Assembly (NCBI GenBank): GCA_965372335.1
Contig: CBDVBX010000001.1
Location: forward strand, 1 to 50,835
DNA length: 50,835 nucleotides
From: an uncultured bacterium
Lineage (GTDB): Bacteria > Krumholzibacteriota > Krumholzibacteriia > WVZY01 > JAKEHA01
Direction of reading: 5' to 3'
Shown: piece after piece, positions 4,445-33,068 of the stretch
How the letters are laid out: each line of letters begins with the position of its first letter
Position numbering within the stretch: position 1 is the first letter of the stretch
Made by a program: the position numbers and the translations under genes
Notes under the pieces: generated by a model
Seen by the model: only the letters and a program-made list of their open reading frames with translations
Told to the model about the DNA's origin: nothing
Database searches by the model: none

Positions 4445-4596
4445 TGTACCTTTCTTCGAAGTTGGCGCGACCGGATAAGAGTCGATTGTACTACACTACC
4501 CTTATGATTAACGACATTTCCCACAGCGGTTTGTGTCGATTTTGGCCATCCGGCCGGCAATTCGACCATTATATGGATTGTCCGAAGCTTGGCCGG

Positions 4597-14359: not shown

Positions 14360-14360
14360 A

Positions 14361-16273: not shown

Positions 16274-17638
16274 TCAAATGACCCCTTGGTCAATCATCGC
16301 GTCCGCGACCCTCATGAAACCCGCAATGTTCGCGCCGCTCACGTAATTACCCGGAGCGCCGAACTCTTCCGCTGCGTTCAAGCAGGCCTCGTGGATGTTC
16401 TTCATGATCACCTTGAGTCGGTTGTCCACCTCCTCGCGCGTCCAGGCAAAACGCATGCTGTTCTGGGCCATCTCGAGACCCGAGACCGCGACACCGCCGG
16501 CGTTGGCCGCCTTCCCCGGAGCGTATAGGATGCGCCGGTCGGTGAACGCATTGATTGCATCCGGCGTTGCGGGCATGTTGGCGCCTTCGCAGACCAACTG
16601 GACGCCGTTCTGCAACAAGTTCTGCGCATCTTTACGGTTGATCTCATTCTGGGTCGCGCACGGGAAAGCACAGTCCGCTTTGCGGGCCCAGAGCGGATTC
16701 TCGTCCCAACCTCCGATTTCCGCGGAGGTAAACTCTGTGTCGGGATACCTTTCTGCGAATTCACGGATACGGCCTCTATGCAAGTTCTTCAAATCCTTCA
16801 GCCACTCCAGCTTTTCACTGTCGACACCATCGGGATCATAGATATAACCGCTCGAATCCGAGAAAGTCACTACCTTCGCCCCGAGATCGATTAGCTTTTC
16901 TATAACAAACTGTGCAACCTTGCCGCTCCCGGAAACCAGGCAGGATTTGCCTTCGAGCGTCTGATCTCGGGTAGCGAGCATTTCCGTGGCGAAGTACGCG
17001 ACACCATAACCGGTTGATTCGAGACGCATGACGGAGCCACCCCAGTTGATACCTTTCCCCGTCAGCGCTCCGGTAAATTCGTTCCGAAGCTTGCGATACT
17101 GACCGAACAGGTAACCGATTTCGCGTCCGCCTACACCGATATCCCCGTCCGGGATGTCCGTATTCGGTCCGACGTGACGATGCAGCTCGTTCATAAAGCT
17201 CTGGCAGAAACGCATGACTTCGAGATCGCTCTTTCCCTTCGGGTCGAAGTCGGACCCTCCCTGCGCCGCACCCATCGGCAACGTTGTAAGACTGTTCTTG
17301 AAGACCTGTTCCAAGGCAAGGGATTTGAGGATGCTCTGGCCGACCGAAGGATGGAAACGAAGACCGCCTTTGTACGGTCCGATGGAACCATTCATTTCGA
17401 CGCGATAACCGCGGTTCACTTGTACACGGTCGGCGTCGTCCAACCAGGCAACGCGAAAAGTGATCGTCCGTTCGGGCTCGATGATCTGCTCCAGGATCTT
17501 TGCCGTCCTGTAATGAGGATAACGCTCCAGGACGGGGCTCAACGACTCGGCCACGTCTTGGACCGCCTGGTGGAATTCCGGTTCAGCGGGATTCTTTGAT
17601 TTTACCTCAGCCAACAGTTTCTGAACATTATAAGTCAT
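16274..17638 (-). CDS. gdhA: NADP-type glutamate dehydrogenase
   Basis: 454 aa. GPYKGGLRFHPSV, GAAQGGSDFDPKGKS and GSGKVAQ are present, and the protein looks like hexameric GdhA over its full length. Its start overlaps the upstream stop as ATGA. Confidence 0.95.
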   Translation of the reverse strand: MTYNVQKLLAEVKSKNPAEPEFHQAVQDVAESLSPVLERYPHYRTAKILEQIIEPERTITFRVAWLDDADRVQVNRGYRVEMNGSIGPYKGGLRFHPSVGQSILKSLALEQVFKNSLTTLPMGAAQGGSDFDPKGKSDLEVMRFCQSFMNELHRHVGPNTDIPDGDIGVGGREIGYLFGQYRKLRNEFTGALTGKGINWGGSVMRLESTGYGVAYFATEMLATRDQTLEGKSCLVSGSGKVAQFVIEKLIDLGAKVVTFSDSSGYIYDPDGVDSEKLEWLKDLKNLHRGRIREFAERYPDTEFTSAEIGGWDENPLWARKADCAFPCATQNEINRKDAQNLLQNGVQLVCEGANMPATPDAINAFTDRRILYAPGKAANAGGVAVSGLEMAQNSMRFAWTREEVDNRLKVIMKNIHEACLNAAEEFGAPGNYVSGANIAGFMRVADAMIDQGVI

Positions 17639-20600
17639 TTGTCAGCTCCCTTTCCTGATTCGTGCACGTGTTCGTCCGGCAGCTGCTGCGTCTCTTTTTC
17701 AGTCGTCCTAATTTTTAGTGGGCGTGCGGCGTCCGTGACTGCGTTGATTTTTGAAGCGTAGCTGGTCTTTTTTGCGACATCTTCATCGGTAATAATATGG
17801 AAATCCAGCAGTCCTCCGGACCGGTATCCCGTCCGAAGGTAATTGATTTCATCAAGGCAGAGGCTCCAACCCTCGAGCCAATGCACAAGGTCCTTGCGTT
17901 GGGATGCCGTACCTCTGAAGTGGATCAACATGTCGATATCGCTCGCCGGTCCCGCCGTGCCGTTTTTCGTGCTTCCAAACACGTAAATACCCTCAACCCC
18001 AAACTCTTCGGGATCCAGCTGAAAGGCGATCTGCTCGGCCATGCGATAACGCCAGCGCCAATAATTCTCCGGATGACCGTCTTCGAATGTATCCCCTTCC
18101 TCCGGGGACCCGATATCCTGCTCGGGATCCGCCAGCAGGCCCACTGCCTCGCCGAGTTCAGCGTTCATCAATACCTGCATCATTTTCCCGTCTGTGGCGC
18201 TTGCGACATCAATCACCCGAATCACATCGGCGAGATACGCATATTCGGGAAGTAGTTCCGGGAGAATGTTTTCCGAGCGTAGGAGAACGCGCTCGTTGAA
18301 GCATGTTTCCTCATCATCCGGGAACACAGGAAGGTAGTTAATGCCCGATTGCACGAGGTCCTGCAGGAAATGGACTCCGATAGACAAGGCGCTGTCTTCG
18401 GTGTTATCTGGCTGCAGCAAATCGACCAGGACTGCCGCGTTTTTGAAATCGTTGCACTTTAGGTCCACGCCGGCCCGGTGATCGCCGCGGTCACTCCAAC
18501 GACCGGGCCGCATGAGGATGAACTGCCGCTTGGGAAGCAACTCGTTCAACTTCGCCACCGCCTTGCCGACGGCCTGTCGCTGCGCTGGTTCTTCTAGCGC
18601 GTCGAGCGCCGCGGCTCGCAAGTAGACAATGTGGGTGATGTTAGAAACCCATCCGTTCGATACGTAGCGGTTCGCCGAGAATATCAACTTGTCTTCGGTA
18701 ATGTCCTTCGGAATGGGAGCCGGCCGCGGTGCACGGGCAAGGGCCTGGGGGCAACATTGCAAAAGATAAATGTGCTCTCCGTCGGAGGCGAACTCGATCT
18801 CCACGGGCACGCCAAACTTTTCCTCGAGTGTTCGCAGAAGATCCCGGATTTGTGTCCCAAAGGGCCCCCGTGTGATCAATCCATCGAAGGTCACCACGAG
18901 ATCATCGTTCTCGAGGTTTGACTTCCCCTCATCCAGCGGTTGGACCTGGCCGTTTTTATACACAGACACAACTTGTTCCGCGTTGGGATACTCCTCGCCG
19001 AAGCTCCTCATCAGCTCGCTCAGCTCGAGCGTTTGCAAACGGTTGGTCTCCAAGTTGATCACGTCGATACTCCTGGGGGCGCTGCGGAAGCTATCTTCCC
19101 TTACCCCATTTACCTGGATCGACGGCCGGCCCGGCACGACCAGCACAGGATACTCTTCGCCGGTGCGGTCCGAGGCGCGGGTTCCGAGTCCGGGGACGAT
19201 GTGGACCATGCCGTCCTCTCCCGTAATACCGGGCAACCATTGAAAGTCGTTCCGACTTCGGGCTACCCCCGAATAGGCAGGCAGAAAACATGGACCGACC
19301 CGGGTTCCCACTACCTCCTGAATCATGACGCCCATTTGCTCGCTGAACTCCAGCAGCCCACGGTCCGCCCTGTATTCGATCGGATCCGGGCCGAAGTTCG
19401 ACGCGTACACCTCGGCCACCGCGCGCATGAGATCGCGGAGGCGCTCCGCCCTGGTTCCCTGGTTCCCCAAGAATACGCTCTTGTATTTACCGCGGAAAGC
19501 TGACCCCGTTCGGTCTTCCAGTAGCGACGAACTGCGCACGACCAAAGGGCTGTCTTCGAAGTCGTCCAGTGCCATCGACAGCCCGTTGGTCATTTCGGGT
19601 GGATGAACCGTCTGCTGGAACATTTCAATGACGTGTGGGTATTCTAAACGGACCCTTTCGATATCCTTGTACTTCTGCTCAACAATCTCATCCATATTGT
19701 TGTAATGTATGAATTCGAGCATCATGTCCGAGGAGATGTACCAGGTCTTGGGGATCCGGAACGGTGAGTCCGCCCTGAGGCCACCGTTCGTTTTTCTCAA
19801 GATCTGCGACGCCAGGAACAGGCCTGCGCTCTTGCCTCCGAGCTTTCCGTGGCTCTCCGCGGAGCAGATCACCTTCTGGAGAAGCTGGTAGAGATCTTCG
19901 ATGTCCACAACATCCTTCGCGAGGTTGATGTACTCCATCCTGTCCGAAAGAATGCACTCGATGAGAAGGACTTTCAGGCCCCTCGCGAGGGGATACCGGT
20001 TATTCGTTTCTTCATGAGTTGTGAGGATATGCCGTCGGAGGCCGCTGGCGACATCGGAGTGGGGTAGGTGACGGCGCACGGTTCGGAGCAATCCGCCGAG
20101 CTTATCCTCCTGAATCCACATCTGGACGCGGGAAAGAACTTCCTCATTGCTCAGATGTTCGGCGGCGATTCGAAAAATTTTTTCTGTAGATTCGGTGGAG
20201 AAGTCCAGTGGACGGCGCGGCAGTTGCTCCCTCGCTTCGTCGCCGTAGACATTGTACCCCAGCGTGCCCCGGTGTTTGTCCACCCGCCTCAACGCCTCTG
20301 CCTCTTCCACTCCGCTCCAGCACAGGTGGTTGAGCATTTTGTTGGACAGTCTGAGAAAAAGGGCGTTATCCGTCTGACGAATGAGGTCCAGCACGGCCTC
20401 CCAGTCGCCTCTTCGGCTTTCTGAGCGATCCCGGTCGGCGATTTTCCACTCCTGAAAAACGTGCTTCATCTTCTTGTATGTCAGGAAGTGGTTGATCCGG
20501 TCCGCGATGGTCTCGATGAGTTTTTTCTCCTCCTTGAGGAAGGGACCGATGTCCGCCGCGGGCATTTCGCGGGTGTAGTACACGCCGATCGTGCCCAAAT

Positions 20601-20877
20601 TTTGATCCTGGTGTACGATGGGCGCGGTCAGTTTCCAAGGCGTCTCCTCGAAGCCCTGGGAACGGTATTCCCTGCCCTCCAATGTGATCGTAGCCTCACA
20701 GATGTCGGGGAATTGCCATCCCGGAGGAATGGCCTTAATGACACACTCGCAAACCTGATCGATGTCCGCGTCTGGTTCCCTCAGTGTTTCTTCAATGGCG
20801 TATAAGCACGTTAGCTCCTTGGCTCGTTCCGCAAGGGCTTCCAGCAATCTAATCGCTGACTGAGTTTGCTCTTTCAT
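17635..20877 (-). CDS. Multidomain protein: N-terminal CLY-type (GAF-like) sensor module, PEP/pyruvate-binding ATP-grasp domain (PPDK_N), a conserved C-terminal module, and a Pol-beta-type nucleotidyltransferase
   Basis: 1080 aa. LVVRSSSLLEDRTGSAFRGKYKSVF and VEIEFASDGEHIYLLQCCP are PPDK_N hallmarks. GIYVFGSTKNGTAGPASDIDMLIHF is the GSx(n)DxD nucleotidyltransferase motif. The N-terminal ELTCLYAIEE...GPFLKEEKKLIETIA is homologous to a module in the kinase at 31116-32891. Confidence 0.8.
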   Translation of the reverse strand: MKEQTQSAIRLLEALAERAKELTCLYAIEETLREPDADIDQVCECVIKAIPPGWQFPDICEATITLEGREYRSQGFEETPWKLTAPIVHQDQNLGTIGVYYTREMPAADIGPFLKEEKKLIETIADRINHFLTYKKMKHVFQEWKIADRDRSESRRGDWEAVLDLIRQTDNALFLRLSNKMLNHLCWSGVEEAEALRRVDKHRGTLGYNVYGDEAREQLPRRPLDFSTESTEKIFRIAAEHLSNEEVLSRVQMWIQEDKLGGLLRTVRRHLPHSDVASGLRRHILTTHEETNNRYPLARGLKVLLIECILSDRMEYINLAKDVVDIEDLYQLLQKVICSAESHGKLGGKSAGLFLASQILRKTNGGLRADSPFRIPKTWYISSDMMLEFIHYNNMDEIVEQKYKDIERVRLEYPHVIEMFQQTVHPPEMTNGLSMALDDFEDSPLVVRSSSLLEDRTGSAFRGKYKSVFLGNQGTRAERLRDLMRAVAEVYASNFGPDPIEYRADRGLLEFSEQMGVMIQEVVGTRVGPCFLPAYSGVARSRNDFQWLPGITGEDGMVHIVPGLGTRASDRTGEEYPVLVVPGRPSIQVNGVREDSFRSAPRSIDVINLETNRLQTLELSELMRSFGEEYPNAEQVVSVYKNGQVQPLDEGKSNLENDDLVVTFDGLITRGPFGTQIRDLLRTLEEKFGVPVEIEFASDGEHIYLLQCCPQALARAPRPAPIPKDITEDKLIFSANRYVSNGWVSNITHIVYLRAAALDALEEPAQRQAVGKAVAKLNELLPKRQFILMRPGRWSDRGDHRAGVDLKCNDFKNAAVLVDLLQPDNTEDSALSIGVHFLQDLVQSGINYLPVFPDDEETCFNERVLLRSENILPELLPEYAYLADVIRVIDVASATDGKMMQVLMNAELGEAVGLLADPEQDIGSPEEGDTFEDGHPENYWRWRYRMAEQIAFQLDPEEFGVEGIYVFGSTKNGTAGPASDIDMLIHFRGTASQRKDLVHWLEGWSLCLDEINYLRTGYRSGGLLDFHIITDEDVAKKTSYASKINAVTDAARPLKIRTTEKETQQLPDEHVHESGKGADK

Positions 20878-22627
20878 AGCAGATCACCCCCCGGCTACTC
20901 GTACCGTCCACTTTGACATGGAGCGGCTCATTCAACGTGACGTGACGCACGAATTGTGATTCGCGGATTTCTTTCTGGCGTTCCAGCCAATCCCAATTGA
21001 CGGGATACCTCTCGGTTTTGTCCGTTGAAAAATACAGAATCCGCAGGCACGTAACGTTGTGGAAGAAATGCGATCCCTGGCTCATGTCCACGCTCATATC
21101 GGACGAGGAGGCTTCGACGACGACCTTGGCGCCGGACACTTGCCCCCAATTAACGGGAATTCCCAGCCATGGATCGGAGGTCCCGAGACGCCCAAGCACC
21201 ACCAGAGCATAGGGACGACCTGCTTTGAGAAGCTGCCGGTTCATCTCGTCCAGTTCCGCCGCGATCAGCCACGAGTCTTTAGCGGAGAAAACGTCGGGTT
21301 TCACATAAACAATGTCTTTAATGCAGTCCAGCTGTCCGTTACCCAAAACCTGCTCGGAAGCTACGAATACGTGGTCTCCGCGGAGTTCTTGTTCGTTGAT
21401 TTCCACGCGGTCATCGGATATGAACATCGGTCGAACCTGGAGGAAACCGAACCGCGCGCTGTTGCTCGTACCCTGACCGAAGTCTACGGCAAACTCGATC
21501 TCCACAGGATTCCCCAACTCGTCCTCGCAAACAGTCAAAAGATTTCGGACCAGGTCATTCAATGGGATTTCGTTGAGTTCCAATAAGGGACAAAAATCCA
21601 AGACTCGTGCTCCCGGCCTGGCCGTGCCTGGAGTCAGCCGTTCGGTTTGGGGATCGTAGGTCGAAGCCATCTTCCCGAGTACACCATCTTCCTCCGCGTG
21701 GCGGAGATTCCCGTCGAATAGGTATTCTGTTTCCTGGATGGGGTCGTAGGTAGGGGGCTTGCCCATGTTCACGGACCAGAATTGAGTCTGAGTTTGCGTG
21801 AGAAGCTCTTTCATGGAACCGAAAGGAGGTTTTACTTTGGGATAAGCTGGGCAGTAGGTCCACGTCCTGCCTCCGTCTACGATAGTCTTTCCCAATCCCA
21901 GCGCCAGGCTCACCACACCGTGCTCGGGCTGTGTATATCCCAGCGAGTAAAAATTGTACGAGCGGGCCACACCGGAAACATTTGGGTAAAACCGATCGCC
22001 ACGGCGGAGGCCCACGACTTCTTGAATCATGATGGCCATTTTCTCATCTCCGTGCGACCGCCCCAGAGCCTGACGGTAGCTCTTGGCGTCTCGAGAAAAA
22101 GTCGAAGCATAGACAAATTTGACCGCTTCCACCAACGTGCGAAGACGTGCCTCCGCGCTGAACTGGTTGTTGGGTACCATTTTTGTGGCGTAAACACCCG
22201 CCAAGGGCTCTTGAAGGGCATCCTCCAGAAGGCTGGACGACCTTACCGCCAGAGGAGCATGCACGTCGGAGATGAGTTTTCTTAGTTCATCGACGAGCTC
22301 CGTCGGTAGCTCCGCCCTTTGAAAGGCGTTCGCCATGTGTCGATCCTTAGTATCTGACAGGGCAACGTCGTAAAGGCGATTCTTCTCCATGAATAGATCG
22401 AACCAGTCGGTTGCGATTACCCAAAACCACGGGATGTCCACTGCGATGGAGGGAAACGCGTCCTTGTCAAGCCGGGTTTTCAGGATGTGTTCGATCCGCA
22501 CCAGCCCCTGCGCTTTCCCCCCGATTTCCCCCTTCCCAACCTGGGTGAAGAACTTCGCAGTTTGGGCAGTACTCCCGTCGGAGCCACCATCACCTCGTGG
22601 AAATGAGCCGCTTTCTCTGTTCACCAT
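20849..22627 (-). CDS. PEP/pyruvate-binding (PPDK_N ATP-grasp) domain protein, a paralogue of the downstream gene
   Basis: GGKAQGL, LAVRSSSLLEDALQEPLAGVYATK and VEIEFAVDF are present. The C-terminal module GRLGTSDPWLGIPVNWGQVSGAKVVVE...SQGSHFFHN parallels GRWSDRGDHRAGVDL...IGVHFLQD in the 1080-aa protein. I prefer the ATG at 22627. The track start at 22705 is a GTG directly abutting the upstream stop. No canonical GGxTSHAA swivel motif is seen. Confidence 0.75.
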   Translation of the reverse strand: MVNRESGSFPRGDGGSDGSTAQTAKFFTQVGKGEIGGKAQGLVRIEHILKTRLDKDAFPSIAVDIPWFWVIATDWFDLFMEKNRLYDVALSDTKDRHMANAFQRAELPTELVDELRKLISDVHAPLAVRSSSLLEDALQEPLAGVYATKMVPNNQFSAEARLRTLVEAVKFVYASTFSRDAKSYRQALGRSHGDEKMAIMIQEVVGLRRGDRFYPNVSGVARSYNFYSLGYTQPEHGVVSLALGLGKTIVDGGRTWTYCPAYPKVKPPFGSMKELLTQTQTQFWSVNMGKPPTYDPIQETEYLFDGNLRHAEEDGVLGKMASTYDPQTERLTPGTARPGARVLDFCPLLELNEIPLNDLVRNLLTVCEDELGNPVEIEFAVDFGQGTSNSARFGFLQVRPMFISDDRVEINEQELRGDHVFVASEQVLGNGQLDCIKDIVYVKPDVFSAKDSWLIAAELDEMNRQLLKAGRPYALVVLGRLGTSDPWLGIPVNWGQVSGAKVVVEASSSDMSVDMSQGSHFFHNVTCLRILYFSTDKTERYPVNWDWLERQKEIRESQFVRHVTLNEPLHVKVDGTSSRGVICYERANSVSD

Positions 22628-22705
22628 AGCTTTCGACCTGTCTCCTGAAGGTAAGGGATCGCAGCGGTTATTTCGCGTAGCTATCACCCGAAACGTTTGT
22701 GGCAC

Positions 22706-24295
22706 CTACGCGTCCAGGATCTCCTGCGCTTCCATTTCATCGACATCCTTGATGTATTTGATCCCGCTAATCCTGGCCGCATCTTGTGTCAGTGCCGCGA
22801 CGTCATCCCGGCTAATGTAGCTCAGATCAAACTTGCGCGCTCCACTCATCAACTGGCGCAACCCCTGCGCGAGGCGCTCGTAATACGTGTAGAGACCGAT
22901 CGCTCCCGTCGGCAGCTTTTCGAATTCCTCGTCGCCAAGCTCCTTGCGCAGCTCGGGGGCCGTGACAAATATCTCGTCCTTGGTTTTACCGAAACGCTCC
23001 ACGTACACAGGAAGCTCTTGCGCATCTATGGTTTTTCCTATGGTCTTTCCCACCATGGCAGCGGCAATGGGAGAGCGGGCCATGCCCACGAGTTTTACGA
23101 AAGGCGCACCAAGAGCGAGGGCTTTGAAAATGTGGTCTTCGAACGTGAATCCGCCGGCTGGCGCCAAAGCCGGGACGTATTCGCCCCTGTCGGCCAGACG
23201 TTTTGTGTACTCATAGAGCAATGAATGCAGTTCAACGGGCGGCATTCCCCATTCGTTCATCATTCGCCAAGGACTCATGCCCGTTCCACCTCCGGCACCA
23301 TCAACCGTAAGGAGATCGATTCCATACTTGGACGAAAACTTCACCGCCCGCGCTAGATCGGCGGGCCGGTAAGCCCCCGTTTTCAGGAACACGTATTTAG
23401 CGCCCGCGTTGCGCAATTCTTCCACCCGCTGGGCAAAGGACTCTTCGTCCACCATGCCGACACGTGAGTGCCGCTCGAATTCCTTGAACGATCCGCGCTC
23501 GAACGCCGCGATGACGTGAGGATCCGTGGGATTCGGAAGTACGACGTACCCCCGCTCGTACAATAACTGGGCCTTTTCGAGGTCCGTTATTTTCACCTCG
23601 CCACCGATGTTTTTTGCGCCCTGGCCCCATTTGATCTCCACGATTTCCACACCGAGTTCACGAATGGCGTATTCCTGTACGCCAAGCCTGGTGTCTTCCA
23701 CATTCGCCTGGACGATTATGGCGCCGTAGCCGTCGTGCTGGTGATCCTGGTATAACTTGATCCTTCTTTTGAGGTCTACCGTATCGAGTATTTCACCGTT
23801 CTTGAGTCGCGCTTCGGGATCCATGCCGACCACGTTCTCCCCGATGGTGAGTCCCGTGCCGGCCAGTGCCGATCCGATCGCCAGACCCTCCCAGTTATTT
23901 TTGGCGATATTCGTAGAACCGATGCCCGGAATGATCCACGGATACCGGAACTTGATGCCGTTGTCCCTGCCGAAACGCACTTCGAGATTCACATTGGGGA
24001 AAATGGCTTTGTCCGAGTCTGCCTCGATTCCGTGGGCTCCGACCGCGGTACCCATAATGTTGAAGTGCGAGTAGTCCACGGGATACACTTTTTCCGATGC
24101 GGTGGTAATCACACCGAACGGCTGCGGATAGATCACCTCGTGGCCTCGGAAAGCGGACTTTCCGATCTCGCACATCCCCACGCAGCCGTCTACGCAGGTG
24201 ACACACATGCCGGAGCCCGGCGTGACCGATCCTTCGGTCCTGTTCTTGGTCAGAGTTGCGGCAGAAGAGTTTACTCTCGACAATGTCTGAAACAT
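22706..24295 (-). CDS. FMN-binding glutamate synthase family protein (GltB central/FMN domain only, archaeal-type split subunit)
   Basis: 529 aa. N-terminal Cys cluster CVTCVDGCVGMCEIGK. TIM-barrel FMN region with LTVDGAGGGTGMSPW and APAGGFTFEDHIFKALALGA. No amidotransferase or GXGXG domain is fused. Confidence 0.85.
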   Translation of the reverse strand: MFQTLSRVNSSAATLTKNRTEGSVTPGSGMCVTCVDGCVGMCEIGKSAFRGHEVIYPQPFGVITTASEKVYPVDYSHFNIMGTAVGAHGIEADSDKAIFPNVNLEVRFGRDNGIKFRYPWIIPGIGSTNIAKNNWEGLAIGSALAGTGLTIGENVVGMDPEARLKNGEILDTVDLKRRIKLYQDHQHDGYGAIIVQANVEDTRLGVQEYAIRELGVEIVEIKWGQGAKNIGGEVKITDLEKAQLLYERGYVVLPNPTDPHVIAAFERGSFKEFERHSRVGMVDEESFAQRVEELRNAGAKYVFLKTGAYRPADLARAVKFSSKYGIDLLTVDGAGGGTGMSPWRMMNEWGMPPVELHSLLYEYTKRLADRGEYVPALAPAGGFTFEDHIFKALALGAPFVKLVGMARSPIAAAMVGKTIGKTIDAQELPVYVERFGKTKDEIFVTAPELRKELGDEEFEKLPTGAIGLYTYYERLAQGLRQLMSGARKFDLSYISRDDVAALTQDAARISGIKYIKDVDEMEAQEILDA

Positions 24296-24323
24296 GGCGT
24301 TCCGCTCCTTTTCGCAGATGCTC

Positions 24324-25022
24324 CTATTTTCCGGGGATTTGTTGTTTACTTTTCACAATTTCACAGGCCACACAGGGATCCATGTAGCACATCATATCGT
24401 CGAAGCTATTCTTTTCGAGGCACGGCGGTGCCAGGTTGGCACAGCCTCCGCAGACCGCTTTGTCCGGCTCCGTATACGTACACCGGAGAGTACAGACCGG
24501 ACAGACATACATGCAGGCGCCGCACAAACGGCACTCCTCCGACTTGATGTCGAAGGGGGTGCCAATGCTGCGGTGTTCTCCGCGGCCGCGGAAACCGATG
24601 GCTTTGGCGACCATCTGCTCTTCACACATGCGTACGCAAAGACCGCAGAGAATGCAGTCTTCGTATTCCTGTTTGAACCTTTGCGTGCGAACATCGTGTT
24701 TCGCCGCCAGATCTTGAATCACTTTTGATTGCGGGCACGATGCCAGCAAGAGTTCGAGGATCATTTTGCGCGCTTTCACCACTCGAGAGGACGCGGTCCT
24801 GACGGCCAGACCTTCTTGTACCGGGTGAGTGCAAGAGGTGACCAGTTTTGCGTTTTCCCCTTTCCCAACCTCCACCACACAGAGCCGGCATGCACCGTAG
24901 GGTGAAAGACCTTCCATGTGACAAAGAGTGGGGATGGAAAAGCCCAGGAACTGGGCAGCTTCCAGGAGGCTGGTCCCCTTCTCCACGGTTACATCCACAC
25001 CGTTGATTTTGAGGGTAATCAC
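24324..25022 (-). CDS. 2Fe-2S plus 4Fe-4S ferredoxin protein (like the N-terminal part of NuoG/HydA) with a Cys-rich tail
   Basis: MITLKINGVDV...CHMEGLSPYGACRLCVVEV is the plant-type 2Fe-2S fold of NuoG/HydA N-termini. CILCGLCVRMC and CRLCGACMYVCP are ferredoxin motifs. The tail adds CGGC...C...C...CVAC. 4-nt overlap with the NuoF-GltD gene. Confidence 0.8.
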   Translation of the reverse strand: MITLKINGVDVTVEKGTSLLEAAQFLGFSIPTLCHMEGLSPYGACRLCVVEVGKGENAKLVTSCTHPVQEGLAVRTASSRVVKARKMILELLLASCPQSKVIQDLAAKHDVRTQRFKQEYEDCILCGLCVRMCEEQMVAKAIGFRGRGEHRSIGTPFDIKSEECRLCGACMYVCPVCTLRCTYTEPDKAVCGGCANLAPPCLEKNSFDDMMCYMDPCVACEIVKSKQQIPGK

Positions 25023-28000
25023 GCGCTCTGCCTCCCAGTTTCGGTTACTGTTTGTTTTTCTTTCTCGTTACGGGTGAATTCGAGATCGCATCGCAAACAC
25101 CTCAACGACTCCCGACGAGCTTCTGCCTGGGACAGGGCCACCTCCACCTCGGCGAAGTTCCGTCTACGCCATTCCGCCGGAGCACGGGGCGTTTCAGACC
25201 GGTCGCCGCCCAAGGCGGCTTCGTCCACCATCGGTTCCACATACACCTGGGGCAGTCTGGCGAACATAGGTTGAAGCAAGGGTTCTTTTTTGAGAAATCG
25301 CTCAATAATAACGGCCGCTTTTTTCCCGTCTGCGATGGCCTCGACCACTGTGTTGGGGCCGCGGACAACATCCCCGGCGGCGAAAACCCCCGGCCGGTTC
25401 GTCTGCATCGTCGTGGGATCCGTCCGCACGGTGTTCCAGGGCGTCGTCTCGATCTGACTCGACTTCGCGGGTGTGATCGCGTCGATGCCCGAATCCTCGC
25501 CGATCGCGACGATAAGCGTGTCGAGGTCGATGACGTGCTCCGTGCCGTTGATCGGCATCGGTCTGCGTCGGCCGCTCTCGTCGGCTTCGCCCAGCTCGTT
25601 CCGGATGCATTCCAGCCCGGCCAGGCGGCCATTGTTATTGACTATTCTGACCGGAGTAACAAGGGTTTCGATGCGGATTCCCTCCTGATCGGCGGCTTCG
25701 ATCTCCTCGGCGAAGGCGGGCATCTCGTTCCGCGTCCTCCGGTAAAGAATGGTGACCTCGTCCACGTCCTTGAGGCGAAGGGCCATACGGGCCGCGTCGA
25801 TCGCCGAATTTCCGCCTCCGATGACGCCCACCTTTCCCTTGGCCAGCTGTCGCTCTTGTAAGTTAAAAGCCTTTAGAAACTCTATGGAGGGATACACTCC
25901 CTCAACGTCCTCGTTTTCCAGGCGCAGAGGTTTGCTCTTGTGCGCGCCGATGGCCAGGAGAACGGCTCCGTATCCCGATTCGAATAGCTCGTCGATATTA
26001 ATGTCCCGGCCCAGCGCAGTTCCGCATTTCACGGTGATGTTCTCGTTGAGCAAGGCGTCGATTTCTTTCTCGATCACCTCACGAGGTAGACGATACGAGG
26101 GAATGGCGCACGTCAGCATGCCGCCGGGTTCTTTCTCCGCCTCGAACACCGTGACCTCGCACCCTTTGAGGGACAAGTAATGGGCCGCAGTCAGCCCGGC
26201 AGGTCCCGCGCCGATAATCGCAATTTTGGGCGGGGCACCGTCGCTCCACTCCTGCTTGACCGGTTGGTACGCGGAGGGATCGATCCGATCGGTGATGAAA
26301 CGTTTCAACGCCCGTATGGCCACGGGGTCGCCTCCGGCCGCACCAGCCCGGCATTTCGCCTCACACGGATGGTGGCAGACTCGGGCACAGATGGAAGGAA
26401 ATGGATTGGGTTCCCGGATAACGCGGTAGGCCTCGTCGTACTCCCCGTGCCCGATTAGGGCTACGTATCGCCACGCCTCGGTCCCCAAGGGGCACGCGGA
26501 CTGGCAGGGCGCGCCCACTAATTCCTTGCAAACGAAAGCGTCGCACCGTTTGTCTATGATGTGCCGTTCGTACTCTTCGCGAAAGTAGCGCAGCGTGCTG
26601 AGCACGGGATTGGGCGCAGACTGTCCCAGACCGCACATCGTCGTGTCCTTGACCACGTGGGCCAACTCTTCCAGGAGGTCGAGTTCCTCCAAGGTCGCCT
26701 CGCCCTTGGAGATGTCGTCGAGGATCTCGTACATCCGTTGTGTACCCTTCCGGCAGGTGAAGCACTTCCCACACGATTCGTCCTTGAGAAAACCCATGAA
26801 GTATTTGGCCACGTCCACCATGCAGGTGTCCTCGTCCATAACGATCATCCCGCCCGATCCCATGATGGAACCGGCCTTTATCAGGCTGTCATAGTCGATA
26901 GGCAGATCAAACATGCGAGCAGGGATACACCCACCTGAGGGCCCCCCCGTTTGAACCGCCTTGATCTTCGTGTTTCCGGACGCACCCCCTCCGATGTCGT
27001 AAACCACTTCCGAAATCTTTATGCCCAGCGGGACCTCCACCAGGCCTGTGTTCTGTATTTTTCCCACCAGGGAAAAGATCTTAGTGCCCGTGTTCCCCGG
27101 TACGCCCACCCTCGCGTAAACGTCCGCTCCCCCATCAATGATCACGGGAATGTTAGCCAGCGATTCCACGTTGTTAATGCAGGTGGGATGCCCTCCGATG
27201 CCCTTTTCTATCGGATAGGGAGGACGCTGGCGGGGTTCACCTGTGAAACCTTCGACGGATTTGATGAGCGCCGTCTCCTCCCCACACACAAAGGCGCCCG
27301 CCCCTCGTACGATTGTGATGTCAAAGTCGACCCCGGTGCCGAGGATATTCTCCCCCAGCAAGCCCAGGTCCCGAGCCTGACGGAGGGCAATGATGGTGTG
27401 CTTGATAGCGATGGGATACTCGCTGCGCACGTAGATGTAGCCCTGGGTTGCGCCGATAGCAATCCCTCCGATGAGCAGACCTTCGATGATGGCGTGAGGA
27501 TTGCCTTCTAGGAGACTCCGATCCATATAGGCGCCGGGATCCCCCTCGTCGGCATTGCATACTATGTATTTCTGCTCTGCACCGTTTCCGGAAGCCCGCG
27601 CGAGCTCCCACTTCTTTCCGGTCGGGAAACCGGCTCCTCCCCGTCCCCGTAGACCTGATTTTTTGACTTCCTCTACGATCCATTCGGGATCGATCCGTGA
27701 CAGCACTTTCTCGGCGGCCGCATATCCACCCACCTCGATATAATTGATGATTCGGATGGGATCGAGCTTCTGGTTGCTCCCCAGTATGGTGCGCTTCTGC
27801 TTCTTGAAGAAGGGAATGTCGTCCTGGCTGTGGTACTGCCTTTTGTCGTGCGGGTCTCTGTAGATGAGACTTTCGTCGACGAAACCGCCCACGGCAGCGT
27901 CGATAACTCTGGGAACGTCCTCCATCTCGAGCTTTGGATAGAGATGCCGGCCCGGTTCCACGAGGACGAATGGATCCATCTCGCAGAATCCCTGGCAGCC

Positions 28001-28204
28001 GGTAACCCGCAGATCGATCTTTGTCTGGAGCCCTCTATCGAGAATGTATCGCTTGATAATGCGTAAGATATCGTTCGAGCCGCTGGCCTGCCCGCCCGTC
28101 CCGGCGCATACAACCAGGGTTGGGTTGTCGTACTGGAGTTTCTTGTCGTCATGAATGCGTCGACGAAACTCAATGAATTCTGCTACCGTTGAAAGTCTGC
28201 TCAC
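25019..28204 (-). CDS. Fusion: thioredoxin-like 2Fe-2S domain, NuoF-type NADH/FMN flavoprotein (51-kDa subunit), and GltD-type NADPH/FAD oxidoreductase
   Basis: 1061 aa. NuoF part: GLRGRGGAGFPTGKKWE, SLBB region and ESCGKCFTCRKG. GltD part: CQSACPLG...CARVCHHPCEAKC (Fer4_20-like), IAIIGAGPAGLTAAHYL and VGVIGGGNSAIDAAR (two Rossmann sites). Confidence 0.85.
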   Translation of the reverse strand: MSRLSTVAEFIEFRRRIHDDKKLQYDNPTLVVCAGTGGQASGSNDILRIIKRYILDRGLQTKIDLRVTGCQGFCEMDPFVLVEPGRHLYPKLEMEDVPRVIDAAVGGFVDESLIYRDPHDKRQYHSQDDIPFFKKQKRTILGSNQKLDPIRIINYIEVGGYAAAEKVLSRIDPEWIVEEVKKSGLRGRGGAGFPTGKKWELARASGNGAEQKYIVCNADEGDPGAYMDRSLLEGNPHAIIEGLLIGGIAIGATQGYIYVRSEYPIAIKHTIIALRQARDLGLLGENILGTGVDFDITIVRGAGAFVCGEETALIKSVEGFTGEPRQRPPYPIEKGIGGHPTCINNVESLANIPVIIDGGADVYARVGVPGNTGTKIFSLVGKIQNTGLVEVPLGIKISEVVYDIGGGASGNTKIKAVQTGGPSGGCIPARMFDLPIDYDSLIKAGSIMGSGGMIVMDEDTCMVDVAKYFMGFLKDESCGKCFTCRKGTQRMYEILDDISKGEATLEELDLLEELAHVVKDTTMCGLGQSAPNPVLSTLRYFREEYERHIIDKRCDAFVCKELVGAPCQSACPLGTEAWRYVALIGHGEYDEAYRVIREPNPFPSICARVCHHPCEAKCRAGAAGGDPVAIRALKRFITDRIDPSAYQPVKQEWSDGAPPKIAIIGAGPAGLTAAHYLSLKGCEVTVFEAEKEPGGMLTCAIPSYRLPREVIEKEIDALLNENITVKCGTALGRDINIDELFESGYGAVLLAIGAHKSKPLRLENEDVEGVYPSIEFLKAFNLQERQLAKGKVGVIGGGNSAIDAARMALRLKDVDEVTILYRRTRNEMPAFAEEIEAADQEGIRIETLVTPVRIVNNNGRLAGLECIRNELGEADESGRRRPMPINGTEHVIDLDTLIVAIGEDSGIDAITPAKSSQIETTPWNTVRTDPTTMQTNRPGVFAAGDVVRGPNTVVEAIADGKKAAVIIERFLKKEPLLQPMFARLPQVYVEPMVDEAALGGDRSETPRAPAEWRRRNFAEVEVALSQAEARRESLRCLRCDLEFTRNEKEKQTVTETGRQSA

Positions 28205-28252
28205 CGAAACACCTCTCTATGTAACGCCCATACAACCCACACAATCAGTGGA

Positions 28253-29104
28253 TCACTCCAGTGGGACACCGCCCGGGTCCAGCATGTGACCCCGGCAACC
28301 TCTGCGAGCACAAATCTGAACGACACCCCCACCCCGAACGATCATCGGCACCATGGGAGCGCCGCAATCGCTGCATTTCCCGCCACCAATCAATTCGGCA
28401 TGACAGTGGGGACAGAACGCGTGGATGATCTCGTCGCTGGGAATTTCGTATTCTGAAGCTACCTTGTAGCTTCCGTACAAGCTGGAGAGGGCCAGCCAGC
28501 CGTGCTTGTTGCCGAAGGAGACCGTCACACGAATAGAAGGGTGGCCGTCGATGACATGCCGGGGATCCATGAGGCTGTGGTTACAGCGCGCGCAGCTCAC
28601 CTCCACCGGGAAAATGCGGTCGTCCGTTTCGATCTCGATCAAATCCAGCCCCTTCTGGGTCCGCTCGATGATCTCCTTGACTTCAGAGGTTCTGACCTTG
28701 GAAAAGTAATGGCCGTCGGCCACCACCACCGGACCCAGGGCGCAAGCTCCCAGACAATTCACGGTTTCCAACGAAAACTCCCTGTCGGACGTCGTCTCCC
28801 CCGATCGGATCCCCAGCTTTTCCTGGAAAACCTCCGCGATCCTCGGGCCGCCGTGCACGTGACAAGCAGTACCGAGGCACACGGAGATGACGTGCTTACC
28901 CCGGGGCTCCAAACTGAACGCCCTGTAAAACGTGGCAACGCCGTAGACATCAACCAGCGAGCGTCCGGTTTCCGTGGCGAGCGACCTCAATTCCTCTTCC
29001 GGAAGATAACCGTATTTCGCCTGGAGCCGCTCCATGCGGGTGATGAGTCCGCTTTGTTCTCCGTCGGCTTTTTCGATGGGAGCCTCTGCTTGATCCGGAT
29101 TCAT
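28253..29104 (-). CDS. NuoE-like (24-kDa subunit) thioredoxin-like 2Fe-2S protein with a C-terminal Cys-rich extension of about 120 aa
   Basis: YGYLPEEELRSLA...VATFYRAFSLEPRGKHVISVCLGTACHVHG...VNCLGACALGPVV carries the four NuoE Cys residues. The extension contains CARC, CPHC, CSDC and C..GC pairs (zinc-ribbon-like). Confidence 0.8.
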   Translation of the reverse strand: MNPDQAEAPIEKADGEQSGLITRMERLQAKYGYLPEEELRSLATETGRSLVDVYGVATFYRAFSLEPRGKHVISVCLGTACHVHGGPRIAEVFQEKLGIRSGETTSDREFSLETVNCLGACALGPVVVADGHYFSKVRTSEVKEIIERTQKGLDLIEIETDDRIFPVEVSCARCNHSLMDPRHVIDGHPSIRVTVSFGNKHGWLALSSLYGSYKVASEYEIPSDEIIHAFCPHCHAELIGGGKCSDCGAPMVPMIVRGGGVVQICARRGCRGHMLDPGGVPLE

Positions 29105-29151
29105 GTCTTGCGCGTTCCTTGTGTTTTAGGGTTTGTTCTGGTTCCTCGACG

Positions 29152-29352
29152 TCAACGTTCCTCAACATATTCTTCGCAGTGCCATACCCCACCCTCCGGC
29201 TTCGGGAAGAGGCAGGTTTGGCGGTTCGCACAGTTCACGCACAACCCCTTGCAGTCTCCTGCGTATTCCGCAGGACTTTTCGTGCCAGGGCGCTCACCTT
29301 GGGATTGATCCCTGTCGTCCTTTCGGAATCTAGAGGGATGGCGAACCACCAT
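29152..29352 (-). CDS. Small (66 aa) Cys-rich protein, putative first gene of the sigma-54 operon
   Basis: The ATG ORF ends in GDCKGLCVNCANRQTCLFPKPEGGVWHCEEYVEER (C-x4-C-x2-C-x6-C ... WHCEEY). It lies 47 nt upstream of the NuoE-like gene. The SD is weak, so whether it is truly coding is unproven. Confidence 0.45.
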   Translation of the reverse strand: MVVRHPSRFRKDDRDQSQGERPGTKSPAEYAGDCKGLCVNCANRQTCLFPKPEGGVWHCEEYVEER

Positions 29353-29494
29353 AATTCTCTTTTTCTAAGCGAAGAAGGTTACCGTCGCCTCTCCACAGCA
29401 CACAGTCGACGTCTACGTGCTCCGTCGGGTCGAGAAAAATGAAGCATCATTGCCGTTCACATCGATTGCCGTCGACTCAACTCTCTAACGGTAT

Positions 29495-29511
29495 ATCAAG
29501 GGGCGTGCCAC
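29495..29511 (-). promoter_or_regulatory. Candidate sigma-54 (-24/-12) promoter
   Basis: The minus strand reads CAG-TGGCACG-CCCC-TTGAT. This matches TGGCACG-N4-TTGCW with correct spacing and one mismatch (C to A in the -12 GC). It sits about 145 nt upstream of ORF 29352 and immediately downstream of a sigma-54 activator gene. Confidence 0.4.
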
Positions 29512-29589: not shown

Positions 29590-29766
29590 GTTATCTTGGT
29601 GATCCGCGGTGGCGGGTTTCTTTGACAAGACAGCGTGAGCTCGGGAGGTGAACACAGTGACTGGGGTGTTTCACCCCGGTGGGGCGAATCGTCCCGCCTA
29701 CGTGCCTTGACGGTCGCCTCGAAGGGACAGAGTCTGGTCTTTGGAAGGTAGAGTGTTGGCAGAGAG

Positions 29767-31119
29767 CTATTCGGTGTCTAGTTTCAGGCGTTTCATTTTC
29801 TCGCGCAGCGTCTTGCGGTCGATTCCAAGAATCTCAGCCGCGCGAGTCTTGTTGCCGCTCACTGATGCCAGCACGCCGCGGATGTGGGTGATCTCCACCT
29901 CAATCAGCGTGCGATGCAACCCTTTTTCTCGAACACCGGCGTAGCGCATTAAATCGGGTAAGTCGGGTACGTCTATGAAATTCGAATCTGTCATCACCAC
30001 CAGTCTTTGAACCAAGTTCTCGAGTTCGCGCACGTTGCCCGGCCAAGCGAAGTTTCTCAGTATCTCGAGAGCTTTGTCCGAGAACCGAGGTTCCGGCTTC
30101 TCCACTTCCTCGGAAAACTTTCGCACGAAATGCCTGGTCAGGAGAATTATGTCATCTCCCCTCTCCTGCAACGGAGGAATGGCGATTTCGATGACGTTCA
30201 AACGATAGTATAGGTCCTCCCGGAAGCTGCCTTTTTTCACTAGACCTAATAGGTTTTTGTTTGTTGCAGCGAGGATCCTTATGTTGACCTTCCTCGGTTG
30301 AGTGGAGCCAACCATAAAGATTTCTTTCTCTTGCAAGACTCTTAGGAGTTTGACTTGCATGGCGAGGCTGGTCTCGCTAACTTCGTCTAGAAAAATGGTG
30401 CCCCCGTCCGCAGTCTGAAAGAATCCGGCCCGTGACTCCAGCGCTCCCGTAAAGGCGCCCTTGACGTACCCGAACAGTTCGCTCTCCAACAGGGTTTCTG
30501 GAATCCCACCGCAGTTGACCGGAACGAAGGGCGCAGAAGCACGTTTGCTGCTGTAATGGATCGCGCGGGCCACCAGCTCTTTGCCCGTACCACTCTGGCC
30601 GGTGATCAAAATCGTAGCGGGAGTGGACGCAGCCTTGGTGATAGCGCCGAACACTTGGTACATGGGCTCCGATTCGCCCAGAATGCCATACTGAGACTTG
30701 ATGGACTGCGGAAGCCAATCCTGACTGGCCATACGCAATCTGAGTTTGTCCAATGCCCGCCGCACAGCGGTGAACAGTTCCTCATCCGTGAAGGGTTTGG
30801 TCAAATACTCTTCCGCACCGGATTTGATGGCGTCCACGGCGCCTTCCACCGTGGCGTAGCCGGTGATCATCATCACTTCCGTATTCCTGAGGTTCTCCCG
30901 GACGTAACGGATCAAATCCATCCCCGAGTTTTTTGGCATCTTGTAATCCGTTATCACCAGATCCGCCATCGTGTCGTCCAGGATTTTGATTGCCTCGGCC
31001 ACGCTGGATGCCGTGAGCACGTCGTAGCCCTCGGACCGCAGGTTTCGGTCCAGCATTTCCAGCGTCTCCGGGGAATCGTCCACGACCAGGATACGTTCTT
31101 TCTCAGTTATGTTTCTCAT
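29767..31119 (-). CDS. Sigma-54-dependent response regulator (NtrC family: REC, AAA+ and Fis-type HTH)
   Basis: The REC domain has DD...D...K. Walker A is GQSGTGKE. GAFTGA is present (YVKGAFTGAL). DGGTIFLDEV and a C-terminal HTH (AAEILGIDRKTLREKMKRL) are also seen. ATGA overlap with the kinase gene. Confidence 0.95.
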   Translation of the reverse strand: MRNITEKERILVVDDSPETLEMLDRNLRSEGYDVLTASSVAEAIKILDDTMADLVITDYKMPKNSGMDLIRYVRENLRNTEVMMITGYATVEGAVDAIKSGAEEYLTKPFTDEELFTAVRRALDKLRLRMASQDWLPQSIKSQYGILGESEPMYQVFGAITKAASTPATILITGQSGTGKELVARAIHYSSKRASAPFVPVNCGGIPETLLESELFGYVKGAFTGALESRAGFFQTADGGTIFLDEVSETSLAMQVKLLRVLQEKEIFMVGSTQPRKVNIRILAATNKNLLGLVKKGSFREDLYYRLNVIEIAIPPLQERGDDIILLTRHFVRKFSEEVEKPEPRFSDKALEILRNFAWPGNVRELENLVQRLVVMTDSNFIDVPDLPDLMRYAGVREKGLHRTLIEVEITHIRGVLASVSGNKTRAAEILGIDRKTLREKMKRLKLDTE

Positions 31120-32891: not shown

Positions 32892-33068
32892 AACTGATAG
32901 ATTACCCGATACTGGCCGCGATATACGAAAAAGTTCATCGCTTGTCGAGTTTATTCTACGTCTTTCCCGCCGCCAGGTCCAGTGACGGTGGTCGCGTCGG
33001 CAATTGACATTTCCCCAAGATTTTGAGCCGGCGGTAGAGCTAGTTTCTGTGTCGTAGAGGAAAACAAG

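Follow-up and report, generated by a model that had tools for sequence, protein, structure and literature searches.

Which enzyme do the eight tightly packed minus-strand genes between positions 16274 and 29352 of contig CBDVBX010000001.1 encode, and on what substrate does it act? The stretch analysed, called the window here, comprises 50,835 nucleotides from an uncultured bacterium of the Krumholzibacteriota. The cluster brings together a NuoE-like protein, a NuoF-like protein fused to a GltD-like module, a small iron-sulfur (Fe-S) protein, a relative of the flavin mononucleotide (FMN)-binding domain of the glutamate synthase subunit GltB, two PPDK_N proteins, and a glutamate dehydrogenase (GDH). 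We conclude that the enzyme complex is a previously uncharacterised variant of the Bfu family, electron-bifurcating enzymes that were grouped as a class only recently and whose mechanism is under debate. Judged by its protein sequences, the system appears to lack the features that define glutamate synthase (GOGAT) as well as the architecture of Nfn-type Bfu enzymes, and to possess most Bfu features. We regard it as an even call whether this widespread sigma-54-dependent operon specifies a soluble, multi-subunit flavin/Fe-S enzyme of the Bfu family that uses 2-oxoglutarate plus NH4+/glutamate as its third couple. A preliminary description of this DNA knew of no characterised enzyme of such composition, and no description of the gene set was found in the searchable literature or in the Bfu-family supplement. 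A paper on NuoEF and glutamate synthase in relatives from the Ignavibacteria was dismissed, as it deals with unrelated genes.

The NuoE-like protein (283 aa; 28253-29104, on the minus strand like all genes of the operon) is a BfuC/HydC-like [2Fe-2S] subunit. Its NuoE fold spans residues 8-149 (2Fe-2S_thioredx, PF01257, E = 6e-44) and contains the cysteine motifs CLGTAC and CLGAC. Its top eight solved relatives are BfuC subunits of bifurcating enzymes, scoring 111-137 bits as against 75-85 bits for NuoE. Residues 150-283 (28253-28660, minus strand) form an extra C-terminal domain of about 130 residues with four CxxC pairs and weak Zn-ribbon matches; the domain is kept in orthologues, for example in related locus L079, and is unmatched in solved BfuC/HydC subunits.

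The NuoF-like protein (1061 aa; 25019-28204) is a fusion of a BfuB/HydB-like part and a GltD/NfnL-like part, with the domain order Complex1_51K, SLBB, NADH_4Fe-4S, Fer4_20, and Pyr_redox_2. Residues 1-565 make up the NADH-FMN-Fe-S part (PF01512, E = 1e-43; PF10589, E = 4e-34; PF10531, weak), in which the motifs GRGGAGFPTGKKWE and ESCGKCFTCRKG are found. An N-terminal thioredoxin-like domain, which in BfuB bears the B5 [2Fe-2S] (or Zn) site, is matched weakly at residues 29-103 (PF01257, E = 0.0037). The N-terminal half aligns with nine solved BfuB subunits at 655-535 bits (NiFe- and FeFe-HydB, WorB, and NfnB of three organisms), the best being HydB of Acetomicrobium mobile (7t2r_B, 655 bits), compared with about 350 bits for NuoF/Nqo1 and 382 bits for FdsB. 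In the NfnB subunit of T. sibiricus, residues D195, A201-F-M203, F281, and the GGPSG motif are conserved among bifurcating enzymes and absent from non-bifurcating homologues (PMC12018979). Alignment to that subunit (9n5u_B) shows that D195, A201, M203, F281, and GGPSG are all kept in the window protein, with Tyr at the position of F202. The assignment of the NuoE, NuoF, and Fe-S proteins to the electron-bifurcating (HydABC/Bfu) type, proposed earlier, is thus borne out: the best solved relatives are all bifurcating, their scores are about twice those of complex I subunits, and the signature residues are present.

The third protein of the core is a small Fe-S connector of 232 residues (HoxU/WorA-like; 24324-25022; Fer2_4 and Fer4_7), whose gene overlaps that of the NuoF-like protein by 4 nucleotides. 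It contains a [2Fe-2S] and two [4Fe-4S] sites (A1, A2, and A4 of BfuA) and a Cys-rich C-terminal tail. The A3 motif HxxxCxxCxxxxxC was not found in its sequence, as in type 2 enzymes. Its best solved relative is WorA (9mqx_A, 247 aa, E = 4e-37), followed by T. kivui HydA1. WorA is a type 2 BfuA lacking the A3 cluster; through it, a catalytic module encoded by separate genes is plugged onto the core (PMC12318220). The cluster therefore seems to have a type 2 Bfu architecture, in the scheme of PMC9304861, with an additional fourth subunit.

The closest known system is WorABCSL of Acetomicrobium mobile, a type 2 Bfu enzyme (PDB 9MQX), in which a BfuC and BfuB core is joined through the 247-residue BfuA without A3 to a separate catalytic module (PMC12318220). 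The NuoF-like and NuoE-like proteins of the window strongly match WorB and WorC. The catalytic module differs, as the tungstopterin WorL/WorS pair is replaced here by the GltB-like FMN protein. In the window BfuB, the ferredoxin-type domain has given way to a GltD module, the window BfuC carries the extra Cys-rich domain, and the operon adds a small Cys-rich open reading frame (ORF) and a dedicated sigma-54 two-component system.

How far this arrangement is conserved was determined by scanning one genome per species. Relatives of the FMN gene occur in at least 585 species genomes, and the 80 best loci, chosen by similarity of the FMN protein, were analysed using tblastn with the window proteins; the denominators below are loci with enough flanking DNA. 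The HoxU-like gene lies directly upstream of the FMN gene in 73 of 73 loci, the NuoF-like gene is adjacent in 60 of 60, and the NuoE-like gene in 55 of 55. The small Cys-rich ORF is present in at least 44 of 54 loci, the response regulator in 33 of 41, and the kinase upstream in 32 of 40. The loci span at least 12 phyla, including Latescibacterota, Krumholzibacteriia, Planctomycetota, Ignavibacteriales, Zixibacteria, Calditrichia, KSB1, and Marinimicrobia, and the stop/start overlap of 4-8 nucleotides between the NuoF-like and HoxU-like genes is conserved. The four core genes adjoin one another in each of the 55-73 informative loci, an arrangement far above chance. The conserved unit consists of the genes for the two-component system, the 66-residue Cys-rich ORF, and the NuoE-like, NuoF-like, 232-residue Fe-S, and 529-residue FMN proteins. 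The eight-gene operon, which the preliminary description had taken as the unit, is not conserved as such: its NuoE/NuoF/HoxU-like/FMN core is invariant, and the gdhA and PPDK_N genes are accessories, with a GDH gene within 10 kb in 16 of 80 loci and PPDK_N genes downstream in 10 of 50. When all neighbouring ORFs were clustered without bias, just two kinds of accessory genes recurred, those for ELFV dehydrogenases (15 loci) and those for PPDK_N proteins (14 loci); glutamine synthetase, PII, Amt, and amidotransferases were not among the recurrent families. Sister families of the FMN protein that are 45-55% identical to it (P0121, P0122, P0123, and P0127) have no NuoE/F genes in their neighbourhoods, which offered no hint of a function either.

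These counts bear on the idea that the genes encode neighbouring, independent redox proteins under a common promoter instead of one enzyme. Complex formation is predicted here from the genes, which leaves room for such a reading. However, we consider it highly improbable, given the invariant adjacency with conserved overlapping stop and start codons in at least 12 phyla and a small BfuA-like protein that has no catalytic domain of its own and whose closest solved relative is a connector subunit.

The C-terminal half of the NuoF-like protein raises the question of where a second electron branch would lead. Residues 565-1040 form a GltD/NfnL-like 2x[4Fe-4S]-FAD-NAD(P)H module (PF14691, Fer4_20, E = 3e-21; PF07992, Pyr_redox_2, E = 2e-35), to which E. 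coli GltD is 34% identical (E = 4e-63). The NuoF-GltD fusion that had been noted before is real in the window and occurs in 48 of 60 loci, here called the long form; the GltD module is missing in the other 12, in which the NuoF-like gene matches just residues 1-574 of the window protein. In L079 (7423-9273), this short form is a 616-residue protein ending in a 2x[4Fe-4S] ferredoxin-type domain and, by its domain content, looks like a canonical HydB/BfuB. The short form occurs in Planctomycetota, Marinimicrobia, and others. In the long form of the window, a GltD/NfnL module with its own two predicted [4Fe-4S] clusters appears to have replaced the ferredoxin-type B3/B4 domain (IPR017896). The two forms provide a natural experiment for telling coupling to ferredoxin from coupling to NADP(H).

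A GltD-like module next to a Bfu core is also the hallmark of NfnABC/StnABC (PDB 9BOV, 9N5U, and 8OH5), where a BfuBC core is combined with a GltD/NfnL-like FAD-NADP(H) module that follows two [4Fe-4S] clusters. The cluster could accordingly encode an Nfn-type (NfnABC/Stn-like) NADH/ferredoxin:NADP+ transhydrogenase in which the GltD module moved from BfuA to BfuB, NADPH is supplied to or removed from GdhA, and the FMN protein is auxiliary or regulatory. The module is indeed closest to the NADPH-binding part of NfnA/StnC (9bov_A, 361 bits; also 9n5u_A and 8oh5_C) and contains a YRRxxxEMPA stretch, which we take to be typical of NADPH-binding GltD/NfnB, and the window GdhA passes an NADP-specific equivalog (NF006929, 710 bits against a cut-off of 536). 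In the known enzymes, however, a large BfuA carries the module; the window cluster has it joined to the C-terminal end of BfuB in place of B3/B4, and BfuA has only 232 residues. Moreover, the 12 loci without the GltD module retain the FMN subunit, three of them (L031, L050, and L069) still with a GDH. The FMN subunit is also universal and the most conserved component of the set: median identities to the window proteins in the 80 loci, of which only the ranking inside a locus is meaningful since the loci were picked by FMN similarity, are 82% for the FMN protein, 79% for the HoxU-like protein, 68% for the NuoF half, 64% for the NuoE-like protein, and 59% for the GltD half. Known Nfn-Bfu enzymes require no fourth subunit (PMC9304861). 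We therefore consider a transhydrogenase of this kind unlikely, and return to a Bfu enzyme in which the FMN protein is catalytic.

The FMN protein (529 aa; 22706-24295), the presumed catalytic subunit, matches Glu_synthase (PF01645) weakly, with 60.3 bits against a gathering score of 20.4, over residues 281-402 only, and none of the NCBIfam families. Pairwise alignment with the FMN domain of E. coli GltB gives 24% identity over 301 columns and pairs the motifs RLGV/RFGV, EIKWGQGAK/QIKVAQGAK, GGE/GGQ, LPNP/SPPP, and DGAGGGTGMSP/GYDGGTGASP; hhalign aligns the two at a probability of 61.5% over just 85 columns. The AlphaFold2 model (predicted local distance difference test, pLDDT, 80.7) has its highest identities, 17-19%, to GltS structures among the Foldseek matches. 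A C-x2-C-x3-C-x3-C motif at residues 31-42 is kept in the alignment of the family and probably substitutes for the canonical 3Fe-4S site of GltB. Residues Q225, K228, E233, and R248 are, we assume, the equivalents of the Q-x2-K-x5-Q...R residues around 2-oxoglutarate in GltS, which would fit a 2-oxo-acid site. Database relatives number in the thousands; the best 120, labelled Krumholzibacteria, Latescibacterota, Bacteroidota, Ignavibacteriae, Aminicenantes, and Acidobacteriota, are 82-96% identical to the window protein, and the protein is 80-96% identical across phyla. What had been called a GltB FMN subunit thus seems to be genuinely, though distantly, related to the GltB synthase domain, in that the motifs are shared, the identity is low, and the canonical 3Fe-4S cysteines are gone.

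GltBD resembles the window system in combining a GltD-type electron-input module with a Glu_synthase FMN TIM barrel bearing RxGV, (E/Q)IKxxQGAK, and DGxGGTGxSP motifs, and archaeal GOGATs are split into separate domain proteins. The genes could thus encode a split but otherwise ordinary glutamine-dependent GOGAT. Such an enzyme would need domains that the cluster does not have, as the preliminary description had already recognised. In tblastn searches with E. coli GltB domains 1, 2, and 4, nothing was found in the window (best E at least 0.1). The amidotransferase domain (E. coli residues 43-470) gave a best window E of 5.3, no hit at 1e-3 in 88 loci, and no Pfam match; the central and GXGXG domains gave best window E values of 0.46 and 0.11, and none was found within 10 kb on either side in the 88 loci. 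The recurrent neighbour families do not include GATase_2, central, or GXGXG domains either. The Ntn-amidotransferase of GltBD is missing here, an N-terminal Cys4 motif is present instead of its 3Fe-4S site, electrons would enter through a Bfu core, and GltD itself is absent from 12 of 60 loci. A split ordinary GOGAT is therefore very unlikely. Dihydropyrimidine dehydrogenase (PreT/PreA) offers another partial parallel, as a GltD-like NAD(P)H-FAD-2x[4Fe-4S] module feeds an FMN TIM barrel through Fe-S clusters (PMC8097209); its barrel, however, belongs to another, DHODH-like family, and a NuoE/NuoF module is lacking.

If the FMN protein is the catalytic subunit of a Bfu-type complex, its substrate may nevertheless be another one: lactate, 2-hydroxyglutarate, a different 2-oxo acid or imine, or some other metabolite, with GDH as a mere metabolic neighbour. 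Lactate monooxygenase, flavocytochrome b2, and glycolate oxidase (E ~1e-10) are the top Foldseek matches and stand level with GltS, and sequence searches reach no significant GltS. Proteins of the Glu_synthase family with non-GOGAT roles exist, such as N-methylglutamate synthase, and Ldh/Etf is a precedent for a confurcating 2-hydroxy-acid dehydrogenase. The sequence motifs of the FMN protein, however, are of the GltS type. Alpha-hydroxy-acid oxidases require a catalytic His, and the alignment of the FMN-protein family contains no invariant His or Tyr. GDH, represented by two classes, is also the only recurrent metabolic neighbour. On balance, we think another substrate rather unlikely, and keep 2-oxoglutarate and glutamate as the working assignment.

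The window gdhA gene (454 aa; 16274-17638), which overlaps the preceding gene by 4 nucleotides, is a lineage-specific yet recurrent accessory. The tie to GDH proposed earlier extends well beyond the window: the association is recurrent and independent, as the 16 of 80 loci involve two GDH classes in at least four gene orders. GdhA-type enzymes show 60-82% identity; the archaeal/GdhB-type enzymes are about 30% identical (NF040817, 535 bits) and non-orthologous. The GDH gene follows the PPDK_N genes in L009 and L011-L013, as in the window; it directly follows the FMN gene in L050, L062, and L084, lies between the regulator and the small ORF in six loci, immediately precedes the nuoE-like gene in the same orientation in L069, and is on the opposite strand on either flank of the cluster in L031 and L080. 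By a rough estimate, chance would place a single-copy gene within 10 kb on either side in well under 1% of loci. We therefore read the recurrence as a good indication of a role for the system in glutamate/2-oxoglutarate metabolism, and it does not single out a particular reaction. Adjacency to two classes of GDH supports a 2-oxoglutarate/glutamate substrate, short of proof. Because the FMN subunit is a remote GltB relative without the canonical 3Fe-4S cysteines, reductive amination of 2-oxoglutarate is a step that we infer. The counter-enzyme complex GltAB-GudB of Bacillus subtilis (PDB 7MFM) is a precedent, by analogy only, for a GltS-type enzyme coupled to GDH, and the sigma-54/RocR-dependent rocG gene is one for sigma-54-dependent GDH expression in catabolism; unlike here, these involve a canonical GOGAT and no Bfu core.

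We propose that the BfuC-, BfuB-, and BfuA-like proteins and the FMN protein would assemble into one complex, in which the small BfuA would link the bifurcating FMN/Fe-S core electrically with the GltB-like subunit, namely with its N-terminal Cys4 cluster and its FMN. NAD(H) would react at the FMN of BfuB, and the flavin-cluster site of BfuB/BfuC would split or merge electron pairs. One branch may run through the BfuA clusters and the Cys4 cluster to the FMN of the GltB-like subunit, where the third substrate would be the 2-oxoglutarate + NH4+/glutamate couple, and glutamine would not take part. The low-potential branch of the short form would end in the usual 2x[4Fe-4S] ferredoxin-binding domain, making NAD(H), ferredoxin, and the substrate the three partners; that of the long form would reach NADP(H), in place of or in addition to ferredoxin, by way of the clusters and the FAD of the GltD module. 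GdhA would draw on the same substrate pool, and the PPDK_N proteins, bearing the GAF-like sensor of the kinase, may respond to the ligand of the kinase by modifying or regulating the complex. In its full form, the proposal is a Bfu-type, glutamine-independent glutamate synthase/dehydrogenase, whose core would couple 2-oxoglutarate plus NH4+/glutamate to ferredoxin in the short form and to NADP(H) in the long one, and whose GAF-like sensor would control both transcription, through the kinase, and activity, through the PPDK_N/nucleotidyltransferase protein or a stand-alone sensor. This combination is tentative, and we would sooner expect part of it to fail than all of it to hold.

Textbook potentials are about -280 to -320 mV for NADH and -420 to -500 mV for ferredoxin. 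The 2-oxoglutarate, NH4+/glutamate couple lies at about -130 mV at 1 M NH4+ and drops by about 30 mV with every ten-fold decrease in NH4+. Because of these potentials, we estimate that confurcation, in which glutamate and reduced ferredoxin or NADPH yield 2 NADH, is favoured, and that the reductive direction would be taken only at high ammonium. The predicted confurcation resembles the logic of lactate dehydrogenase/Etf.

Several observations weigh against this assignment. By the same estimate of ours, NADH-driven reduction of 2-oxoglutarate and ferredoxin is thermodynamically marginal. Searches with phmmer against PDB sequences reached only IMPDH (E = 0.2) and no significant solved GltS, and the profile of a 16-sequence family alignment led to de novo TIM barrels, reaching solved GltS only at E = 0.15, so that sequence by itself did not suffice to assign the subunit. 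The structure model of the FMN protein is poor over the Cys-rich N-terminus, and Foldseek ranks FMN alpha-hydroxy-acid oxidases level with GltS (E ~1e-9 to 1e-10). The C-x5-C-x4-C 3Fe-4S site is absent, the stretch after barrel strand 8 reading GMARSPIAAAMVG, without Cys. The mapping of Q225, K228, and R248 to 2-oxoglutarate contacts is presumptive, by analogy with the GltS literature. No GDH accompanies the cluster in 64 of the 80 loci. On the side of the core, a defining feature of BfuB, its B3/B4 domain of the ferredoxin type, is replaced in the window protein, and the N-terminal [2Fe-2S] site of BfuB has three of four Cys (CAGTGG...GCQGFC); NfnB of T. sibiricus also lacks that N-terminal cluster and bifurcates nonetheless (PMC12018979). 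Finally, a Bfu-like sequence alone is no proof of bifurcation, and the coupled three-substrate activity stays predicted.

The regulatory genes belong to the conserved unit. From upstream to downstream, the order is a kinase, an NtrC-family activator, a sigma-54 element, and the eight packed genes. The -24/-12 element TGGCACGCCCCTTGAT (29495-29510, minus strand), whose -12 part reads TTGA, had been noticed before; it is real and conserved, being the sole exact match to TGGCAC-N5-TTGMW in the 50.8-kb window. Such an element occurs 400-530 nucleotides upstream of nuoE in 18 of 55 loci under a strict pattern and in 36 of 55 under a loose one, the background being 0.015 and 0.10 per 900 nucleotides, respectively. 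About 170 nucleotides upstream of the -24 element lies an imperfect palindrome, CGATTCGCCCCACCGGGGTGAAACA (TTCGCCCCAC-GGGG-GAAA; 29667-29691, minus strand), which we tentatively consider a candidate activator-binding site. Similar palindromes occur in L001 (~4600-4640), L002 (~4585-4620), and L004; a search with a simple consensus recovered the palindrome in 3 of 54 loci, failing in most of the distant ones.

The activator (29767-31119, minus strand) is an NtrC-family sigma-54 enhancer-binding response regulator with Response_reg, Sigma54_activat (E = 3e-69, GAFTGA), and HTH_8 domains. Its gene overlaps by 4 nucleotides that of the sensor histidine kinase (31116-33281, minus strand; 721 aa as called), which is composed of GAF, a GAF-like sensor (aa 355-468), HisKA, and HATPase_c. 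The kinase ORF is probably over-extended, with the true start downstream of 33281, since its relatives have 541-591 residues; some orthologues consist of the sensor domain and the kinase core alone. The suggestion that this pair places the operon under nitrogen control is not sustained: the activator scores 418 against the NtrC equivalog TIGR01818 (cut-off 558.6), the score for NR-II (NF008293) is 102 (cut-off 240), the best equivalog matches, AtoC/AtoS, are likewise under cut-off, and the sensor of the kinase is an uncharacterised GAF-like domain.

This sensor domain, of about 115 residues, occurs in the kinase (31878-32219, minus strand) and at the N-terminus of the 1080-residue PPDK_N protein (20494-20835, minus strand), with 35% identity between the copies (E = 3e-23). 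It has no Pfam family and a weak GAF match (E = 0.0025). A model built on an alignment of database homologues (pLDDT 92.8) resembles the compact GAF domains of NifA, NLH1, CodY, and PtsP, all at E > 0.002. In another lineage, the sensor forms a stand-alone protein of 209 residues encoded 31 nucleotides downstream of the FMN gene. As the domain is common to the kinase, the PPDK_N protein, and this stand-alone protein, a single ligand seems to control transcription and probably also the enzyme itself. Outside the window, with copies at L095 6001-6630 and L100 8001-8669, the sensor takes this stand-alone form or stands N-terminal to a sigma-54 activator whose gene neighbours a Liv-type ABC transporter for amino acids.

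The first gene of the operon (29152-29352) encodes the 66-residue Cys-rich protein. Its family comprises 97 homologues of 58-116 residues without a Pfam family and has the invariant motif GLCxNCxxRxxCxxxKxEGGVWHCEEY, with four Cys and a His, of which longer members have a second copy. In L099, the same sensor kinase and activator and a two-motif small ORF (10704-11072) lie 38 nucleotides ahead of a GDH gene, and Bfu genes are lacking in the neighbourhood. The small ORF may thus belong to the regulatory module and not to the enzyme, because the L099 copy directly precedes a GDH gene in a locus free of Bfu genes. A role as a ribosomally synthesised and post-translationally modified peptide or peptide cofactor was rejected, as maturases (radical SAM or YcaO) do not recur in the vicinity. 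A 55-codon ORF that lies upstream of an archaeal homologue of the FMN protein is unrelated to the small Cys-rich ORF.

Two PPDK_N (ATP-grasp) proteins lie between the FMN gene and gdhA. The first (20849-22705; 618 aa as called; Pfam E = 1e-38) has no recognisable phospho-His or PEP-utilizer domain, and its gene likely starts at Met27 (22627), where a 92%-identical relative of 592 residues in L007 begins. It is 31% identical to the PPDK_N region of the second protein (17635-20877; 1080 aa; Pfam PPDK_N and NTP_transf_2), which contains the GAF-like sensor at residues 15-128, PPDK_N at 345-725, and a Pol-beta-type nucleotidyltransferase at 958-995 with GS...DxD present. Orthologues of the latter, 718-1071 residues long, follow the FMN gene in other loci. 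With a Pfam threshold of E <= 10, neither the C-terminal parts of these two proteins (185 residues in the first) nor the small ORF gave a match, leaving a degenerate phospho-His swivel domain, suspected by eye at GRLGTSDPWLGIPV, unsupported. Covalent regulation and substrate activation are candidate roles for the PPDK_N and nucleotidyltransferase domains.

All eight ORFs were found at the coordinates of the preliminary description, each domain that it named was recovered using Pfam and NCBIfam profile searches, and the tight packing holds: the genes overlap by 4 nucleotides at 25019-25022 and 17635-17638 and by 29 at 20849-20877, and the other gaps are 28-48 nucleotides, with a further gap of 78 if the first PPDK_N gene begins at Met27. 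A scan for terminators and sigma-70 promoters across the operon gave no more hits than in shuffled sequence, and none in the intergenic gaps. Downstream of gdhA, a 312-nucleotide gap with a sigma-70-like promoter precedes a cytochrome c7 multihaem/Fer4_11/NrfD gene set (13091-15961, minus strand) for a quinone-interacting redox module of the membrane. The set is apparently transcribed on its own, and its adjacency to the cluster is not kept elsewhere. Other genes of the window include a 525-residue ThiS-Rhodanese-ThiF triple fusion (8933-10510, plus strand) that overlaps by 4 nucleotides the gene of a pyridoxal-phosphate-dependent (PALP) enzyme (10507-11475, plus strand), which looks like a protein-thiocarboxylate sulfur-transfer/cysteine-synthase-type pair, and a 214-residue protein with a divergent 4Fe-4S mono-cluster domain (Fer4_19) and two CDGSH iron-sulfur domains (11524-12168, minus strand). 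A 693-residue eukaryotic-type Ser/Thr protein kinase (35153-37234, plus strand) is followed by a MetA-pathway outer-membrane-like protein; neither is related to the operon.

The carriers of the conserved unit belong mostly to uncultured sediment and subsurface phyla and are anaerobes. Because the FMN subunit is more conserved across phyla (80-90% identity) than its operon partners (50-65%), it points to an as yet unassigned reaction that is important and strongly constrained in anaerobic carbon and nitrogen cycling. The known or predicted third substrates of Bfu enzymes are H2, formate, NADP+, F420, aldehydes, CO, pyruvate, aryl-CoA, quinone, and H2O2 (PMC9304861). If the catalytic module of one member were a glutamate-synthase-like flavoprotein, the family would reach into central nitrogen and amino-acid metabolism. 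If the proposed reaction is true, an amino-acid couple would join these third substrates, and anaerobes would have one more way of connecting ammonium with glutamate, the third after GDH and the glutamine synthetase-GOGAT pathway.

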